The position numbers were made by a program, and so were the translations under genes. From a phage, in the sequence record OZ335961.1: a stretch of DNA of 64,000 nucleotides, one strand, 5' to 3'. Each line of letters opens with the position of its first letter. Position 1 is the first letter of the stretch. Positions 25,773-42,570 of this stretch are shown here, piece by piece. A model generated the notes under the pieces. It saw nothing but the letters and a program-made list of their open reading frames with translations. It did not search any database and was not told the DNA's origin.

Positions 25773-26062
25773 TCAGTCTCCAATTTAATGTTCATAATTC
25801 TAGCGTATGATTGTGCCATCTCCGCGCCTCGCTCTATACATTCAAAATCGGAAGAGCACGGGTCATTTTTATAAGTCGTTCGCATAAAACTATAGAACTG
25901 TTCAGATGATTCTACGCTTTTATTTTCAAAAAGCATATAAACGTGTCTAATACCAGATTCCATAAATTTATCAAAATGAGGATCGACATTCGCTTCAATC
26001 GGTGGAGATAAAGCAAACGCTAATCCTAGCATGGCAAATAGTGCCGTTGCTTTTAAGGCCAT
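25769..26062 (-). CDS. rI: lysis inhibition regulator rI (secreted/membrane-anchored)
   Basis: 97 aa; N-terminal signal-anchor MALKATALFAMLGLAFALS; matches T4 rI as recalled. Confidence 0.85.
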   Translation of the reverse strand: MALKATALFAMLGLAFALSPPIEANVDPHFDKFMESGIRHVYMLFENKSVESSEQFYSFMRTTYKNDPCSSDFECIERGAEMAQSYARIMNIKLETE

Positions 26063-26074
26063 AAAGGCCTCCTA

Positions 26075-26287
26075 TCATTTTTGTCCTGTATTTACTTTAT
26101 GCCGGTGCACGGCCTTAACTTTATCAAGGTATTTTTCAAAATTTCGCAATCTAGTATAGTCTGCTGGAGATTGGTTGAGTGATACTTCTCGACGCAAAGC
26201 TGAAATGATATTTCCAACTTCCCTACGAATTTCATCTAATTGAAGAACAGTAAGATTGCGAAGTTGCTTTTCAGTTAATTGTAGCAT
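26075..26287 (-). CDS. hypothetical protein
   Basis: 70-aa ORF. Confidence 0.45.
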
Positions 26288-26329
26288 ATATACCCCTTTA
26301 GTTAGATAAACCTATTTATAACTTTTGCA

Positions 26330-26911
26330 CTAACCGAGCTTTTTAGTTAATTCATTCCAATGTTTTCTGCACAAAGAAACATAAATTTCATCACCAATAC
26401 AGATTTGATTACCTTCTTTAACTGGTGTTCCATCTTCCATTAATCGAGCTGTCATAATAGCTTTTTTACCACAATGACAAACTGCTTTTAGTTCAATAAG
26501 TTTATCTGCAATCGCCAAAAGTTCTTTAGAACCTTCAAATAATTTTCCAGCGAAATCAGTCCTTAGACCATAAGCCATAACAGGAACATTATATGTATCA
26601 ACAATTCTGCTTAATTGATGTACCTGTTCAGTTTTTAAAAACTGGGCTTCATCTACAAATACACAATGAATATCTTTTTGTGCTTCAGCCCATTTATAGA
26701 ACTCAAAAATATCCATATCATCCGTAATAATATTCGCTTCCTGTTTAATTCCAATGCGAGAAACGACTTCACAGACAGAATCGCGAGTATCAATAGCAGG
26801 CTTAAGAACTAATACACCCATTCCACGTTCTTTATAATTATGCGCAGCAGTCAAAAGAGAAGCAGATTTTCCAGCATTCATTGCTGCATAAGTAAAAATT
26901 AAACTCGCCAT
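26330..26911 (-). CDS. tk: thymidine kinase
   Basis: 193 aa; P-loop NAGKS near N-terminus, C-terminal zinc-binding cysteines; matches T4 Tk. Confidence 0.9.
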   Translation of the reverse strand: MASLIFTYAAMNAGKSASLLTAAHNYKERGMGVLVLKPAIDTRDSVCEVVSRIGIKQEANIITDDMDIFEFYKWAEAQKDIHCVFVDEAQFLKTEQVHQLSRIVDTYNVPVMAYGLRTDFAGKLFEGSKELLAIADKLIELKAVCHCGKKAIMTARLMEDGTPVKEGNQICIGDEIYVSLCRKHWNELTKKLG

Positions 26912-26920
26912 ATCACCTTC

Positions 26921-27106
26921 TTAAAGCGTATTCACATAAGCTATTAATTCGTTTTCTTTCTTATCAAACCGATCAGCAAATTCTTCTTGCTGTTCGGGAG
27001 ATAGCGGGCCATATTCATCATAAAAGGTGTTTGCTTCTGTATGCTCATCTAGAAGTTCATGGATAAGCTCAAACAATTTATCTTTTTGTTCTTTACTCAG
27101 ACTCAT
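26921..27106 (-). CDS. hypothetical acidic protein
   Basis: 61-aa ORF. Confidence 0.4.
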   Translation of the reverse strand: MSLSKEQKDKLFELIHELLDEHTEANTFYDEYGPLSPEQQEEFADRFDKKENELIAYVNTL

Positions 27107-27272
27107 ATATTAATTTCCAGGAGTTTTAAAATAATTCGCTTTTGCTTAAATATTTCCACAGTTAAATGATCAGTATCTTTTTGGTCAATTCCAGTTGCAA
27201 AACCTTTATTAACAGCGAGTTCAATTAAATTATCAAGTTCACGTAACACTTCATATTGTAGCTCAGAACTAT

Positions 27273-27500
27273 TCATTTCGGTTTACCTTCTTTAACGAAA
27301 TCAGGATAAGGATAAAATCCTGAATAAAATCCTTCACCTTTATGATTGATGCATCCTTTATTAGAACAATAGCACCAATAATCGAAATCACAAGTCATTT
27401 CATCATTACATAAAGCAAAAACAACTGGCCATTTACACTTTTCGCAGTGGGCATTTTTAAGAATACTAGTTTGGCTCATAACCATGTAACCTTTAAGCAA
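27273..27500 (-). CDS. hypothetical cysteine-rich protein
   Basis: 75 aa with 8 Cys (CEKCK...CNDEMTCDFDYWCYCSNKGC). Confidence 0.45.
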   Translation of the reverse strand: MLKGYMVMSQTSILKNAHCEKCKWPVVFALCNDEMTCDFDYWCYCSNKGCINHKGEGFYSGFYPYPDFVKEGKPK

Positions 27501-27688
27501 TATTCTTCTACATGTTGTTTACGACCTTTCTTATCAATAAAGGTATATTCAACGAATGTTCCAATATAGTCTTTATCTACATTATGTGGACTATTAATTG
27601 GGCATTTAGTACGGCAAATGCGTTCCCATTGACGAATAACTTCTGCTTTGTTTTTAGGATCAAACGGATGCGGGTAATGTACTTTCAT
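27476..27688 (-). CDS. hypothetical protein
   Basis: 70-aa ORF. Confidence 0.45.
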   Translation of the reverse strand: MKVHYPHPFDPKNKAEVIRQWERICRTKCPINSPHNVDKDYIGTFVEYTFIDKKGRKQHVEEYCLKVTWL

Positions 27689-28139
27689 AATCCACCACTA
27701 TTAAATCAATATCAGGAGTAAACATGTCGATTAATTTAGAAACCTTATCCCAATCACCGCCAGCAATACCACAACCTATGCGTGGAATATAAATTACTGG
27801 TTTAAACAAAAGGGTTTCTGCCTGTTGATTTAATTCTATCATACAGTTTACTAAAGCACCATAATCAAGATTAGGACCCGGTTCGTATTGCGTATACAGG
27901 TTATAGCATATACCAAATCCCGTAGGATTATGTTTAAAAACAATAGACATATCGCCTAATTTATCACGAGAACCGTACTCGGTAGTGGTTTTATCTATTT
28001 CTAAAATTTTGGGATAGGCTCTTGCTAATTGACCTGCTACACCAGAGCCCATTGTGTGGAAGCAATTGCACCCGTGCGCAATAATATTACCTTGAAGAAA
28101 TAGGGCGACAATATCGCCCTTGATATATTTTACAATCAT
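27660..28139 (-). CDS. macro-domain (ADP-ribose binding/processing) protein
   Basis: 159 aa; GDI...AHGCNC...MGSGVAGQLA and IGCGIAGGDW motifs resemble macro-domain Gly-rich loops. Confidence 0.55.
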   Translation of the reverse strand: MIVKYIKGDIVALFLQGNIIAHGCNCFHTMGSGVAGQLARAYPKILEIDKTTTEYGSRDKLGDMSIVFKHNPTGFGICYNLYTQYEPGPNLDYGALVNCMIELNQQAETLLFKPVIYIPRIGCGIAGGDWDKVSKLIDMFTPDIDLIVVDYESTLPASV

Positions 28140-28483
28140 CTAGTACTCAATCCTCGATTATAAGAATCTACTAAACGGTCAACCATTGAATGACAAGCGG
28201 CTTTATCTTTCTCCTCCGCAACTGAACATTCTAAAGTATTCCACTTTTTAGCATATCGTTTTAACAATGTATCATTTTTATATCTGCTTGATTTATCTCT
28301 TTCTCCATCTTTATATGCATATATTAATTTCTGCGCAAATTCAGCTTGGCATGCTTTATTTTTTCCGCAATAATCCGCGGCAGTACGGTTTACATACTCT
28401 CTAATTTCAGTATATGATGTATCTGCTGATGCAGAAGCAGAAAATGAAATTAATCCTATACATAAAACCAAAATTTTAGTCAT
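28136..28483 (-). CDS. secreted small protein (vs position)
   Basis: 115 aa with cleavable-looking signal peptide MTKILVLCIGLISFSASASA. Confidence 0.5.
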   Translation of the reverse strand: MTKILVLCIGLISFSASASADTSYTEIREYVNRTAADYCGKNKACQAEFAQKLIYAYKDGERDKSSRYKNDTLLKRYAKKWNTLECSVAEEKDKAACHSMVDRLVDSYNRGLSTR

Positions 28484-29021
28484 TTACTATTTCCAAAAGT
28501 TTATTATTTTTAAGGTAGTTAGCCTTTTCTAGGACTTCAGAAGCATATTTAGAACCTGCTTTAACATTCCATCCCGAATTATAAGAGGATATTGCTTTTC
28601 TTATATCGCCCTTATGTATATTTAACCAATAAGAAAGTTCAATGTACGCCCAGGAAGCTGAATTGGACCGTTTATTCAACATTCTTTTTATTTCAGCATC
28701 GGTCATATTATAACCAAGTTCCTTAACTCTTGCTCGCATGGTTGGCAAATAATTTTGGAACATTCCGTAGGCATGATGCTTTGGTTTAGATTTTAAATTA
28801 ACTCCGGCAGAGCTTTCTTGCCATAAAATAGCAGCCATTATATGACCTAATCCGCTTTTGTGGATATTTTTGTGTGTTTTATATTTTCCATCCTTAGAAA
28901 ATTGTTCCCCGAATTGATATGCGTAACGCATGTTATCGAGTTGGACATTACTGAAAGTATGCTCGGAGCTATGCGCCATCATTGAAATGGCCAATAGACC
29001 AGCGAGTAGTGCTTTTCTCAT
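28476..29021 (-). CDS. secreted lytic transglycosylase-like protein (vs.1 position)
   Basis: 181 aa; signal peptide; SLT-domain-like motifs QES, GMFQ, YNSG. Confidence 0.55.
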   Translation of the reverse strand: MRKALLAGLLAISMMAHSSEHTFSNVQLDNMRYAYQFGEQFSKDGKYKTHKNIHKSGLGHIMAAILWQESSAGVNLKSKPKHHAYGMFQNYLPTMRARVKELGYNMTDAEIKRMLNKRSNSASWAYIELSYWLNIHKGDIRKAISSYNSGWNVKAGSKYASEVLEKANYLKNNKLLEIVND

Positions 29022-29028
29022 GCTTACC

Positions 29029-29490
29029 TCATTGAGTTTTAATTACTGCTTTAGAAGCCTTTCCTGGTAAACGACGACTGTTGATAATTGCCATCCTGCA
29101 CTGAAGTGACGGGTCTTTGAACTTCGCATTAGGTTTACAAACTGTAAATCCAAGCCAAAGATTTCCATCTGTGATTTCTAAACGTCCAGGACGATATTCG
29201 ACCCCATCAATAAAATCCTCGTCAATGTCAGGACGCGGAGGCATACTCAAGAATTCATTAACTTCTAAAACATGGTCTTTTATTTTGTGGAATAATTCAA
29301 AAACATATGTCTCATCAATCTCCCGCTGAATTGCACGATCAAGAAGATGCTGAGAATATTTTAGATGAAACGATGAGACTCCTGCTGCTTTTGATGCCTC
29401 ACGAATCTCATTGTTAATTTGACGAAACTCCGACTCAAAGTGACGACGGAGCTTATTTCGACGGATAAAAACTTCTGTGTTGATAGTCAT
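29029..29490 (-). CDS. regB: RegB sequence-specific endoribonuclease
   Basis: 153 aa; matches T4 RegB as recalled; early promoter immediately upstream. Confidence 0.85.
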   Translation of the reverse strand: MTINTEVFIRRNKLRRHFESEFRQINNEIREASKAAGVSSFHLKYSQHLLDRAIQREIDETYVFELFHKIKDHVLEVNEFLSMPPRPDIDEDFIDGVEYRPGRLEITDGNLWLGFTVCKPNAKFKDPSLQCRMAIINSRRLPGKASKAVIKTQ

Positions 29491-29504
29491 GTTATTCTCC
29501 TCTT

Positions 29505-29546
29505 AACTGATAGAAAAATTATACCACAGTCAAGAGGAAAAGTAAA
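29505..29546 (-). promoter_or_regulatory. early promoter upstream of regB
   Basis: GTTTAC - 18 nt - TATAAT on minus strand. Confidence 0.55.
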
Positions 29547-29549
29547 CAG

Positions 29550-29828
29550 TTATTCTTTAAATCTAATCAATTTATTCATAGACTTTGAAACTTCTGCACG
29601 GACCTCATGTAGGTTTTTAAGCTGTTCAAGACGTTGCTCATAGTAAGCAATTTCATCTTCTTCAAGACAGTCCTGTGAATCTTCTTTAAGATAACGTGCA
29701 TAGTCCTGGAAAGCTTTACGGACTACTTCTTGGAAGTCATCAAGACTTTGAATTTTCTTAGGAGCAACAGATACACGACGAGGGGCAGTATAATACTCAT
29801 AACCAAACCCTGCGCTTAATTGAGCCAT
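29550..29828 (-). CDS. hypothetical small protein; candidate Acb2-like cyclic-oligonucleotide sponge (assignment tentative)
   Basis: ~92 aa from [13 protein letters not shown]; position corresponds to T4 vs.3/vs.4. Confidence 0.45.
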
Positions 29829-30094
29829 TAGTATTTTTCCTCTGGTTGGAACACAGCACGACAAGCCCACATACTGGCTTCTTTGAGTTTCGTTTTAGCA
29901 ATAGTTAACTGATCGAGGCTTTCAGCATAATTCTTCGTGAATTCACAGTCTTCACAATTATCTAGTGCTTCCCAGAATTCATCATATAAAGCATCAAAGA
30001 TAAGTCCTAAACGAACTTCAGCATCTTTGATAGCATTCACTTTACTGATTTTATCGTCAGTATGTGGCTTATAACCTTTAATATCTTCAATCAT
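29828..30094 (-). CDS. hypothetical acidic protein (vs.4/vs.5 position)
   Basis: 88-aa ORF. Confidence 0.45.
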
Positions 30095-30308
30095 ATTCTA
30101 CTTCCTCACCAGTGCCCAAATCATATTCAACTAAACGAATAGGTTCATGAATGCCATATCCTTGAACAGAAATTTCTGTTGTAGGATAAATTCCATTAAT
30201 ATCACCCATGTTCCATGCTTCATTAAATTGCTGTTCGCCTGAATTACTAAACCATTCGGCGAAAGCATTTAACACATCTTCAGAACCTTCAATAATTATC
30301 TTTGCCAT
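30087..30308 (-). CDS. hypothetical acidic protein
   Basis: 73-aa ORF. Confidence 0.45.
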   Translation of the reverse strand: MAKIIIEGSEDVLNAFAEWFSNSGEQQFNEAWNMGDINGIYPTTEISVQGYGIHEPIRLVEYDLGTGEEVEYD

Positions 30309-30670
30309 TACAAGCTCTCAGTAAAGGTACGAGCAATAACGTCGCGTTGCTGTTCCGGAGTCAGAGAGTTAAAGCGAACTGCATATCCGGATACACGGAT
30401 GGTCAGCTGCGGATATTTTTCCGGATGCTTAACTGCATCTTCCAGAGTTTCACGACGCAGAACGTTAACGTTCAGGTGTTGACCACCTTCAATTTTAACT
30501 GTAGGTTGTGTTTCAATTTCAATTTCACGGGTGTGCAAACCGTAGAAAATTTCTGGGTCTACAAAAGAGTCCTCTTTAAAGGTTTTAGAAACAATAATTC
30601 GTGCTTGAATACCATCTTCAAAATAAATAGTACCTTTATGTGTGCCTTCAAGAATTTGATATGCTTTCAT
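30308..30670 (-). CDS. autonomous glycyl radical cofactor (GrcA/YfiD-like)
   Basis: 120 aa; C-terminal ~60 aa ([59 protein letters not shown]) near-identical to E. coli GrcA as recalled, including RVSGY glycyl radical motif. Confidence 0.7.
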
Positions 30671-30677
30671 ATAAACC

Positions 30678-31058
30678 TCAATTAGAAAATAAATTTATCC
30701 AAGATTGCTCTTTAATTAAAAATGGCTCAGAATCATATGCCATTAAACTTTGGGTGATTAGTCCTTTAAAAGGTCCATCAATAAATTCCATGGTAAAATA
30801 CGGAATTTTATTCATTAATCTTGCATTAGGAGCAGTACACAAAACTCTGCATCCTTTGAATACGCCTTTTTGTAATTTGTACTGCTTAGGATAAAATTCG
30901 CTCAAGACGTTATTATTTGCTAAAATTTCAAAATGATTCACCAATTTATTTTTAATAGTTTTTGGCGAAAAATAAAGATATTCGAAAAGTTGCGTATCTG
31001 TCATCATTGCATTCCAATTACGAAAAACTGCGGACGAGTAATACCACCAATGCAGCAT
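30678..31058 (-). CDS. hypothetical protein (start likely internal; overlaps next ORF)
   Basis: 126-aa track ORF overlapping upstream gene by 55 nt. Confidence 0.4.
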
Positions 31059-33206: not shown

Positions 33207-33662
33207 TTAAAAGAGGCTGTTCATTATTCGGTAAAGTGAAGGACCCATCACATATTGCCACTGAGTACGAGGAATAAGAGCAAAAGCATCCATCTCTGGA
33301 ATCATAACACCATCTTTATTTTCAAAATAAGATTCGCAATGGCAATTTCTAAACATCTCATGCTCTACTGGAATCGTATAATAAAATAACTGCAAGTCTT
33401 TATTACTAGAATATTTAAATACACCTAGGTCTTCTAGAAGGTCTGGATTATAATCGATAAAACCAGTCTCTTCTGAGCATTCTCTTTTTGCAGCTTCCAG
33501 TGCATTCAAATCAGAACTTTCTACACGCCCCTTTGGAATATCCCAGCGATGTGCCATCATTCCAGACTTACGAGAACCAGTAACTCGTCCCATAAATAAA
33601 TCTTTATCTTCTGTCATAAAGATAATACCAGCTGATAATGTTTTCATTTTAATTTCCTGCAT
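33207..33662 (-). CDS. nudE: Nudix hydrolase
   Basis: Nudix box GRVESSDLNALEAAKRECSEETG. Confidence 0.8.
   Translation of the reverse strand: MQEIKMKTLSAGIIFMTEDKDLFMGRVTGSRKSGMMAHRWDIPKGRVESSDLNALEAAKRECSEETGFIDYNPDLLEDLGVFKYSSNKDLQLFYYTIPVEHEMFRNCHCESYFENKDGVMIPEMDAFALIPRTQWQYVMGPSLYRIMNSLF

Positions 33663-41873: not shown

Positions 41874-42570
<697 letters not shown>

Follow-up and report, generated by a model that had tools for sequence, protein, structure and literature searches.

The stretch of phage DNA analysed here (the window, 64,000 nucleotides of sequence record OZ335961.1) encodes a stand-alone macrodomain protein that belongs, by sequence and by structure model, to the ALC1-like/TARG1-like class. 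The gene occupies the position of T4 tk.4, which has also been named adfM. Its product is likely an ADP-ribosyl-glycohydrolase that removes ADP-ribose installed by DarT2 from the thymidines of phage single-stranded DNA, probably by a chemistry of Gln, Asn and water. A preliminary description of the window had proposed a macro-domain protein and a link to DarT-based host defences. It was right, and the finding is not new: a macro-domain role against DarT2 is already known for T4, and the existence of a named, genetically characterised orthologue makes the gene an already known kind of thing.

The window derives from a Tequatrovirus and, across 20 kb, is approximately 95% identical to Escherichia phage ECML-134 and related phages. 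Read directly from the sequence, the ORF runs from ATG to stop over 159 codons and spans exactly 27660-28139 of the minus strand. Its translation includes the segments IAHGCNC...MGSGVAGQLA and IGCGIAGGDW. The features of the gene and its surroundings are as follows.

27660..28139, minus strand: tk.4/adfM coding sequence, 159 aa, with a single macro domain (ORF and translation).
28136..28139, minus strand: ATGA, in which the start codon of tk.4 and the stop codon of vs overlap (sequence read directly).
27660..27688, minus strand: 29 nt shared by the 3' end of tk.4 and the beginning of tk.3 (ORF coordinates).
28102-28120, minus strand: GC-rich hairpin with a perfect 8-bp stem (GGGCGAUAUUGUCGCCC) and a U-rich run after it, at codons 7-13 of tk.4 (sequence).
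29518-29546, minus strand: TG-extended sigma-70-like match, TTTACT-17-TATAAT, just upstream of regB (promoter scan).

The ORF is far beyond a chance reading frame, as indicated by strand agreement, gene overlaps, an identical protein in another phage and widespread relatives. The gene and all of its neighbours lie on the same strand. The ATGA junction of vs and tk.4 is identical in T4 and in Shigella phage sb3 and suggests translational coupling in the regB-vs.1-vs-tk.4 gene string. The 29-nt overlap with tk.3 codes for the extra C-terminal residues relative to T4 Tk.4, and the annotations of sb3 and Dhakavirus IME281 show this overlap too. Phage sb3 encodes a protein identical to that of the window. 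DNA-level matches to the gene were found in 580 phage records, and tblastn relatives of the protein in 2784 of 50,697. A search of 1.84 billion cluster representatives returned 6271 related clusters at E<=1e-3 and 1621 at E<=1e-10.

The window and annotated T4 share the gene order rI.-1, rI, rI.1, tk, small tk.x ORFs, tk.3, tk.4, vs, vs.1 and regB. The ORF is flanked by tk.3 and vs, just as tk.4 is in T4, which identifies it, in sequence terms, as the positional orthologue of tk.4 and a member of the AdfM orthologous group. The two proteins are 58% identical over 155 aa (BLASTP, E=3e-71). A scan of 26000-31000 for sigma-70-like promoters returned 14 matches, fewer than the 20.3 obtained in shuffles. 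The site at 29546-29518 is the sole plausible consensus promoter for the regB-vs.1-vs-tk.4 string and is given as a candidate. The hairpin at 28102-28120 is identical in T4 and sb3 and lies just ahead of the point at which the alleles diverge. Folding of its 81-nt context does not improve on that of shuffled sequences (z = -1.4), and therefore no regulatory claim is made for it.

Profile searches, the check that the preliminary description had recommended, readily detect the macro domain. Pfam Macro (PF01661) matches with E=1.5e-8 and 35 bits, above its gathering cutoff of 22, and the match spans nearly the whole profile (positions 2-117 of 118). A single-sequence search of solved macrodomains recovered BT1257 (5e-10), yeast Poa1p (1.5e-9) and SCO6735 (5.6e-8), and further down M. 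tuberculosis DarG (3.5e-5) and TARG1 (0.009). With a profile built from 118 homologues, the matches were BT1257 at 8e-19, TARG1 at 5e-16, SCO6735 at 2.4e-15, Poa1p at 2.4e-14 and DarG at 2.4e-11. An AlphaFold model computed on the 118-homologue alignment reached a mean pLDDT of 93.9 and a pTM of 0.89. Foldseek placed TARG1 first for this model (1e-9), followed by Poa1p, BT1257 and DarG, and YmdB and MacroD structures ranked far below the TARG1-like class. The Pfam match, the sequence and profile matches and the ranks of the model together point to the ALC1-like/TARG1-like class. By sequence and structure, the closest proteins are TARG1, DarG, Poa1p and SCO6735/BT1257, and not MacroD, PARG or viral macrodomains. 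The two Gly-rich motifs, which had been likened to ADP-ribose binding loops, both align with the loops of solved macrodomains, as expected for a macro fold.

More specific family assignments were rejected. Several homologues carry a JGI label of YmdB/MacroD-type O-acetyl-ADP-ribose deacetylase. The corresponding model (NCBIfam NF001661) gave 19.1 bits, far short of its cutoff of 291, and the structural rank was lower. The DarG equivalog (NCBIfam NF048014) gave 29.8 bits against a cutoff of 250, the match covered only positions 2-142 of 338, and the catalytic Lys is missing. The window protein, at 159 aa, is without the C-terminal DarT-binding half of DarG, and its gene is flanked by vs and tk.3 with no darT. 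The PADLOC model of DarG gave 1.3e-7 for the window protein and 4.4e-39 for PhiKZ gp104. A toxin–antitoxin origin by way of bacterial homologues was also considered and dismissed. The Pelagimonas homologue stands alone among unrelated housekeeping genes, the second supposed bacterial homologue sits in another phage, and neither of the two gave evidence of a toxin–antitoxin system.

The function of the T4 orthologue has been approached genetically. When T4 transposon insertions were screened on DarTG2-expressing cells, tk.4 alone emerged as a significant hit, and its clean deletion sensitised the phage to DarTG2 (bioRxiv 10.1101/2025.11.20.689424, a preprint of November 2025). The authors noted the likeness of tk.4 to the macrodomain of M. 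tuberculosis DarG, named the gene adfM (anti-DarT factor Macrodomain) and proposed that it removes ADP-ribose from DNA (10.1101/2025.11.20.689424). This evidence is genetic, comes from a preprint and shows the DarTG2 requirement for the T4 allele only (10.1101/2025.11.20.689424). In our literature search, this HIDEN-SEQ preprint alone treated tk.4 as a macrodomain, and no biochemistry of T4 Tk.4 was found. The counter-defence role that had been suggested for the window gene is thus supported through its T4 orthologue, which is needed against DarTG2 (10.1101/2025.11.20.689424). We infer that the window allele, 58% identical, does the same job as T4 Tk.4.

A second phage protein, PhiKZ gp104, was independently named AdfM (Cell Rep 2026, PMC13309987). 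It strips DarT2-made ADP-ribose from a DNA oligonucleotide in vitro and rescues DarT2 toxicity (PMC13309987).

The preliminary description had correctly stated that T4-like phages encode ADP-ribosyltransferases; three have been reported, Alt, ModA and ModB. An eraser beside them would make a tidy writer–eraser pair, in which the macrodomain reverses or tunes the ADP-ribosylation of host proteins by the phage itself. The chance that this is the function is very slight. Alt is reported to act on Arg84 of MazF and ModA on Arg265 of the RNA polymerase alpha subunits, whereas TARG1-like macrodomains cleave ADP-ribose from esters of acidic residues and from nucleic-acid bases and are not known to act on arginine. 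Moreover, the depletion of tk.4 insertions was reported specifically in the presence of DarTG2 (10.1101/2025.11.20.689424).

GenBank labels on near-identical genes read "macro domain protein", "phosphatase" or "Poa1p-like". The latter two names correspond to a Poa1p-like activity, namely an ADP-ribose-1''-phosphate phosphatase or another hydrolase of small ADP-ribose derivatives, which we consider improbable for the window protein. The "phosphatase" label was inherited from Poa1p by homology. No source of ADP-ribose-1''-phosphate is known during T4 infection of E. coli, since T4 RNA repair bypasses the 2'-phosphate junction. For T4 tk.4, sensitivity to DarTG2 is the one phenotype that was found (10.1101/2025.11.20.689424).

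The active site was examined in a MAFFT alignment of eight proteins (the window protein, T4 Tk.4, SCO6735, BT1257, TARG1, the DarG proteins of M. tuberculosis and T. aquaticus, and PhiKZ gp104). Conservation was assessed in 118 close homologues and in 150 representatives of clusters at <=50% identity. The relevant segments are given below.

28065..28076, minus strand: codons of HGCN, H22-G23-C24-N25, with N25 as the conserved active-site Asn (translation and alignment).
28032..28052, minus strand: Gly-rich loop 1, MGSGVAG (M30-G36), counterpart of the first Gly-rich loop in solved macrodomains (alignment).
27888..27902, minus strand: codons N80-L-Y-T-Q84, with Q84 at the position of the catalytic Lys (alignments).
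27750..27785, minus strand: Gly-rich loop 2, P119-W130, PRIGCGIAGGDW (alignment and translation).

The segment H22-G23-C24-N25 aligns with H24-V25-C26-N27 of SCO6735 in the eight-protein alignment. N25 is kept in 150 of 150 representatives and aligns with N27 of SCO6735 and N23 of PhiKZ gp104. Mutation of this Asn cripples both enzymes, as N27S is nearly inactive in SCO6735 (PMC9411070) and N23A loses activity in PhiKZ gp104 (PMC13309987). In loop 1, G31 and G33 are invariant in all eight aligned proteins, and G33 is found in 150 of 151 representatives. Q84 aligns with K84 of TARG1, K80 of DarG and the Lys of PhiKZ gp104, and corresponds to Gln85 of SCO6735, both in the profile-to-TARG1 alignment and in the MAFFT alignment. 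It is invariant, with 118 of 118 close homologues and 150 of 150 representatives carrying it. In loop 2, G124 corresponds to G128 of SCO6735, and A126 lies at the position of TARG1 Asp125. H22 and G124 are nearly invariant in both sets.

The TARG1-type dyad Lys84/Asp125 is thus absent and is replaced by Gln84/Ala126 at the aligned positions. The window protein shares the active-site configuration of the Gln-type proteins SCO6735 and BT1257, with Q84, N25, G124 and H22 aligning with Q85, N27, G128 and H24 of SCO6735. SCO6735 itself is without Lys84/Asp125, yet it outpaces DarG and TARG1 in cleaving DarT-made thymidine-ADP-ribose, and it rescues DarT toxicity in E. coli (PMC9411070). Its Q85A and Q85E variants are inactive (PMC9411070). 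Catalysis by the window protein probably follows the chemistry of SCO6735 rather than that of DarG, judging by this analogy. One element of SCO6735 is lacking: the loop after the Gln has 7 residues in the window and T4 proteins and 12 in SCO6735. Among 150 relatives, the loop has 7 residues in 74, 10 in 47 and >=12 in 15.

The loss of the classical catalytic Lys and Asp could also be taken to indicate a reader that binds ADP-ribosylated targets without hydrolysis, and the non-catalytic ALC1 macrodomain is fairly close to BT1257 (1.7e-12). Such a role is hardly probable. The Gln-type SCO6735 is a highly active hydrolase (PMC9411070), and the residues that it requires (the Gln, the Asn and the loop 2 Gly) are invariant or nearly so in the family of the window protein. 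The conservation of SCO6735-type catalytic residues thus makes a non-catalytic reader unlikely, and mere binding would be expected to leave replication of the modified DNA blocked. The window protein presumably hydrolyses the ADP-ribose linkage rather than merely binding ADP-ribose.

The preferred reading, removal of DarT2 marks from phage DNA, builds on the fold, class, conserved residues and synteny established for the window protein and on the genetic requirement against DarTG2 established for T4. According to this reading, the regB-vs-tk gene string would supply a stand-alone macro-domain enzyme. DarT2 released in the infected cell would put ADP-ribose on thymidines of the single-stranded phage DNA and block replication. 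The phage macrodomain would hold the ADP-ribose between its two Gly-rich loops and cleave the ribose–thymine bond, which would restore normal DNA and release free ADP-ribose. For SCO6735, it has been proposed that the Gln positions the distal ribose and that a water held by the backbone of Val25 attacks (PMC9411070). In the window protein, Q84, locked by N25, may position the distal ribose in the same way for attack by a backbone-held water, with no catalytic lysine involved.

Several points stand against this reading. The window allele is only 58% identical to the tested T4 protein, and its family has neither the Asp of TARG1 nor the catalytic Lys that TARG1 shares with DarG. The mobile loop, five residues longer in SCO6735 and proposed to aid its processivity on DNA (PMC9411070), is also lacking, and the DarG scores are weak (NCBIfam 29.8 against 250 bits; PADLOC 1.3e-7 against 4.4e-39 for PhiKZ gp104).

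The window allele of tk.4 differs markedly from its surroundings. Identity to the neighbouring T4 genes is 100% for vs, 99% for vs.1, regB and tk, and 91% for tk.3. In bins of 30 nt, DNA identity to T4 is mostly 93-100% in both flanks and 37-80% across a block inside the coding sequence.

27660..28113, no strand: mosaic block in tk.4 (binned identity profiles and per-gene identities).

A three-way profile in bins of 50 nt gave mostly 78-94% identity to Dhakavirus IME281 and 38-76% to T4 inside tk.4, and 96-100% to T4 and 41-82% to IME281 in its flanks. Among 30 T4-like IMG/VR loci retaining regB, those of a group of approximately 170-kb phages carry a tk.4 allele with 90-92% identity to that of the window. 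This group includes IME281, and its vs and regB share only 44-46% and 59-60% identity, respectively, with their window counterparts. By sequence comparison, the window tk.4 therefore falls in the Dhakavirus-type allele class (92% identity), and a Dhakavirus-like tk.4 between T4-like flanks indicates that the gene has been exchanged between genera as a gene-precise cassette. The tk.4 slot of T4-like phages holds many allele classes with 53-99% identity. This exchange fits the behaviour expected of a counter-defence gene.

Allele diversity and cassette exchange fit selection by varied opponents. They would also suit a broader nucleic-acid de-ADP-ribosylase, with alleles tuned to a main or extra target beyond DarT2-modified thymidine, such as uracil-linked ADP-ribose on RNA or the marks of other transferases. 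Macrodomains of the TARG1-like class, the Gln-type SCO6735 among them, in addition reverse uracil-ADP-ribose on single-stranded RNA, and SCO6735 acts on protein substrates too (PMC9411070). However, the T4 screen phenotype is specific to DarTG2 (10.1101/2025.11.20.689424), and no bacterial uracil-RNA transferase defence was found in the literature searched. Such breadth has a small chance of being the better account; it overlaps the removal of DarT2 marks instead of excluding it.

Relatives of the gene in unrelated phages have a different neighbourhood. A Gln-type homologue, 37% identical and with the same invariant residues, occurs in Vibrio phage Thalassa and Acinetobacter phage phiAbaA1, where it lies beside or between Prs-like and NAMPT-like genes.

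Thalassa, locus L008, 2632-5691: macro homologue with Prs-like and NAMPT-like genes.
phiAbaA1, locus L009, 467-3971: macro homologue with Prs-like and NAMPT-like genes.

The Prs-like genes are annotated as "ribose-phosphate pyrophosphokinase", and the NAMPT-like genes match Pfam NAPRTase (2e-31 and 6e-26). In a set of 78 IMG/VR loci, a NAMPT-like gene lies <=5 kb from the macro gene in 4 of about 44 non-T4-like loci (L041, L046, L048 and L055). We take the Prs-like and NAMPT-like pair to resemble the NARP1 pathway of NAD+ reconstitution, which uses ADP-ribose. A literature search for a link between NARP1 and macrodomains found none. These neighbourhoods point to a possible link of the macro gene to NAD+ salvage in some unrelated phages, which may serve as a lead.

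A wider picture can be sketched tentatively, with a better chance of failing than of holding as a whole. T-even AdfM may form a separate, lysine-less, Gln-type lineage that is related to SCO6735 and was recruited independently of PhiKZ AdfM. Its alleles may move as cassettes because they differ in the transferases that they neutralise (thymine-DNA, uracil-RNA or others). Elsewhere, the enzyme may have been wired to NAD+ reconstitution, recycling the released ADP-ribose.

Other features of the window were noted. The region from tk to tk.3 (26921-27500) differs from T4. It contains a Cys-rich ORF of 75 aa (27273-27500; Pfam Phage_zn_bind, 2.7e-29) and an ORF of 57 aa (27103-27276; phrog_3452), both without a T4 counterpart at that place, as well as a DUF7438 ORF with 54% identity to T4 Tk.2. 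The annotation of IME281 has a similar arrangement of small ORFs. A vs.6 orthologue of 120 aa (30308-30670, minus strand) consists of a C-terminal glycyl-radical motif only (Pfam Gly_radical, 2e-18) and, much like bacterial GrcA, appears to be a small spare glycyl-radical domain that stands alone. A NUDIX hydrolase of 151 aa (33207-33662, minus strand; Pfam 8.3e-13; phrog_1185 "nudix hydrolase") is probably the orthologue of T4 NudE (e.1). T4 NudE hydrolyses ADP-ribose among other substrates, and the NUDIX protein could thus dispose of the product of the macrodomain. An orthologue of the anti-CBASS protein Acb1 (57B) is encoded at 41874-42329 on the minus strand (Pfam Acb1, 2.6e-60; mislabelled "RNA ligase" in PHROGs) and is a second counter-defence gene within the window.

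Together with AdfN, which acts against DarTG1, and Acb1, which acts against CBASS, tk.4 belongs to a counter-defence kit that helps to set the killing range of T4-like phages. The range of hosts that these phages can kill matters for phage therapy. A macro domain countering DarT2 has already been published for T4, so the finding by itself adds little. Its remaining value is in a catalytic centre without the lysine, the exchange of cassettes across genera and, in other phages, a possible connection to NAD+ salvage. The enzyme is without the catalytic lysine assumed for DarG-like erasers. As its allele was swapped precisely from another genus, natural alleles offer a ready panel for studying the specificity of DNA and RNA ADP-ribose erasers.

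Compared with known systems, the closest is T4 Tk.4, which has the same tk.3-vs slot, size class and invariant residues as the window protein. Identity between the two is only 58%, compared with 91-100% for the neighbouring genes. Four additional C-terminal residues are present in the window protein, and its loop 2 reads IGCGIAGGDW in place of IGAGIGKGNW. Human TARG1 (OARD1/C6orf130), which too removes thymidine-ADP-ribose, aligns without gaps over the loop after the catalytic position. It carries the dyad Lys84/Asp125 where the window protein has Gln84/Ala126, and Ser at the position of N25. Yeast Poa1p, a eukaryotic enzyme acting on a tRNA-splicing by-product, aligns poorly with the window protein in its C-terminal half. 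The DarG proteins of M. tuberculosis and T. aquaticus have the catalytic Lys80 in place of Gln84, and DarG includes a C-terminal DarT-binding half (model of about 338 aa) that the window protein (159 aa) does not have.

PhiKZ gp104 is, like the window protein, a stand-alone phage macrodomain that counters DarT2, and its N23 corresponds to N25. It is only 21% identical to the window protein, is of the DarG type (match to M. tuberculosis DarG, 9e-25) and keeps the catalytic Lys (FPTK). Since gp104 is a Lys-type, DarG-like protein, and both T4 Tk.4 and the window protein are of the Gln type and resemble SCO6735, they fall on different branches, and the two proteins named AdfM appear to be independent recruitments. 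SCO6735 has approximately 26% identity to the window protein and is chromosomal, whereas the window and T4 proteins are phage-encoded. Like BT1257, it has a mobile loop of 12 residues after the Gln; the window and T4 proteins have 7 residues there, a length shared by TARG1 and DarG. On the aligned active-site residues, T-even AdfM is better called SCO6735-like than a captured DarG.
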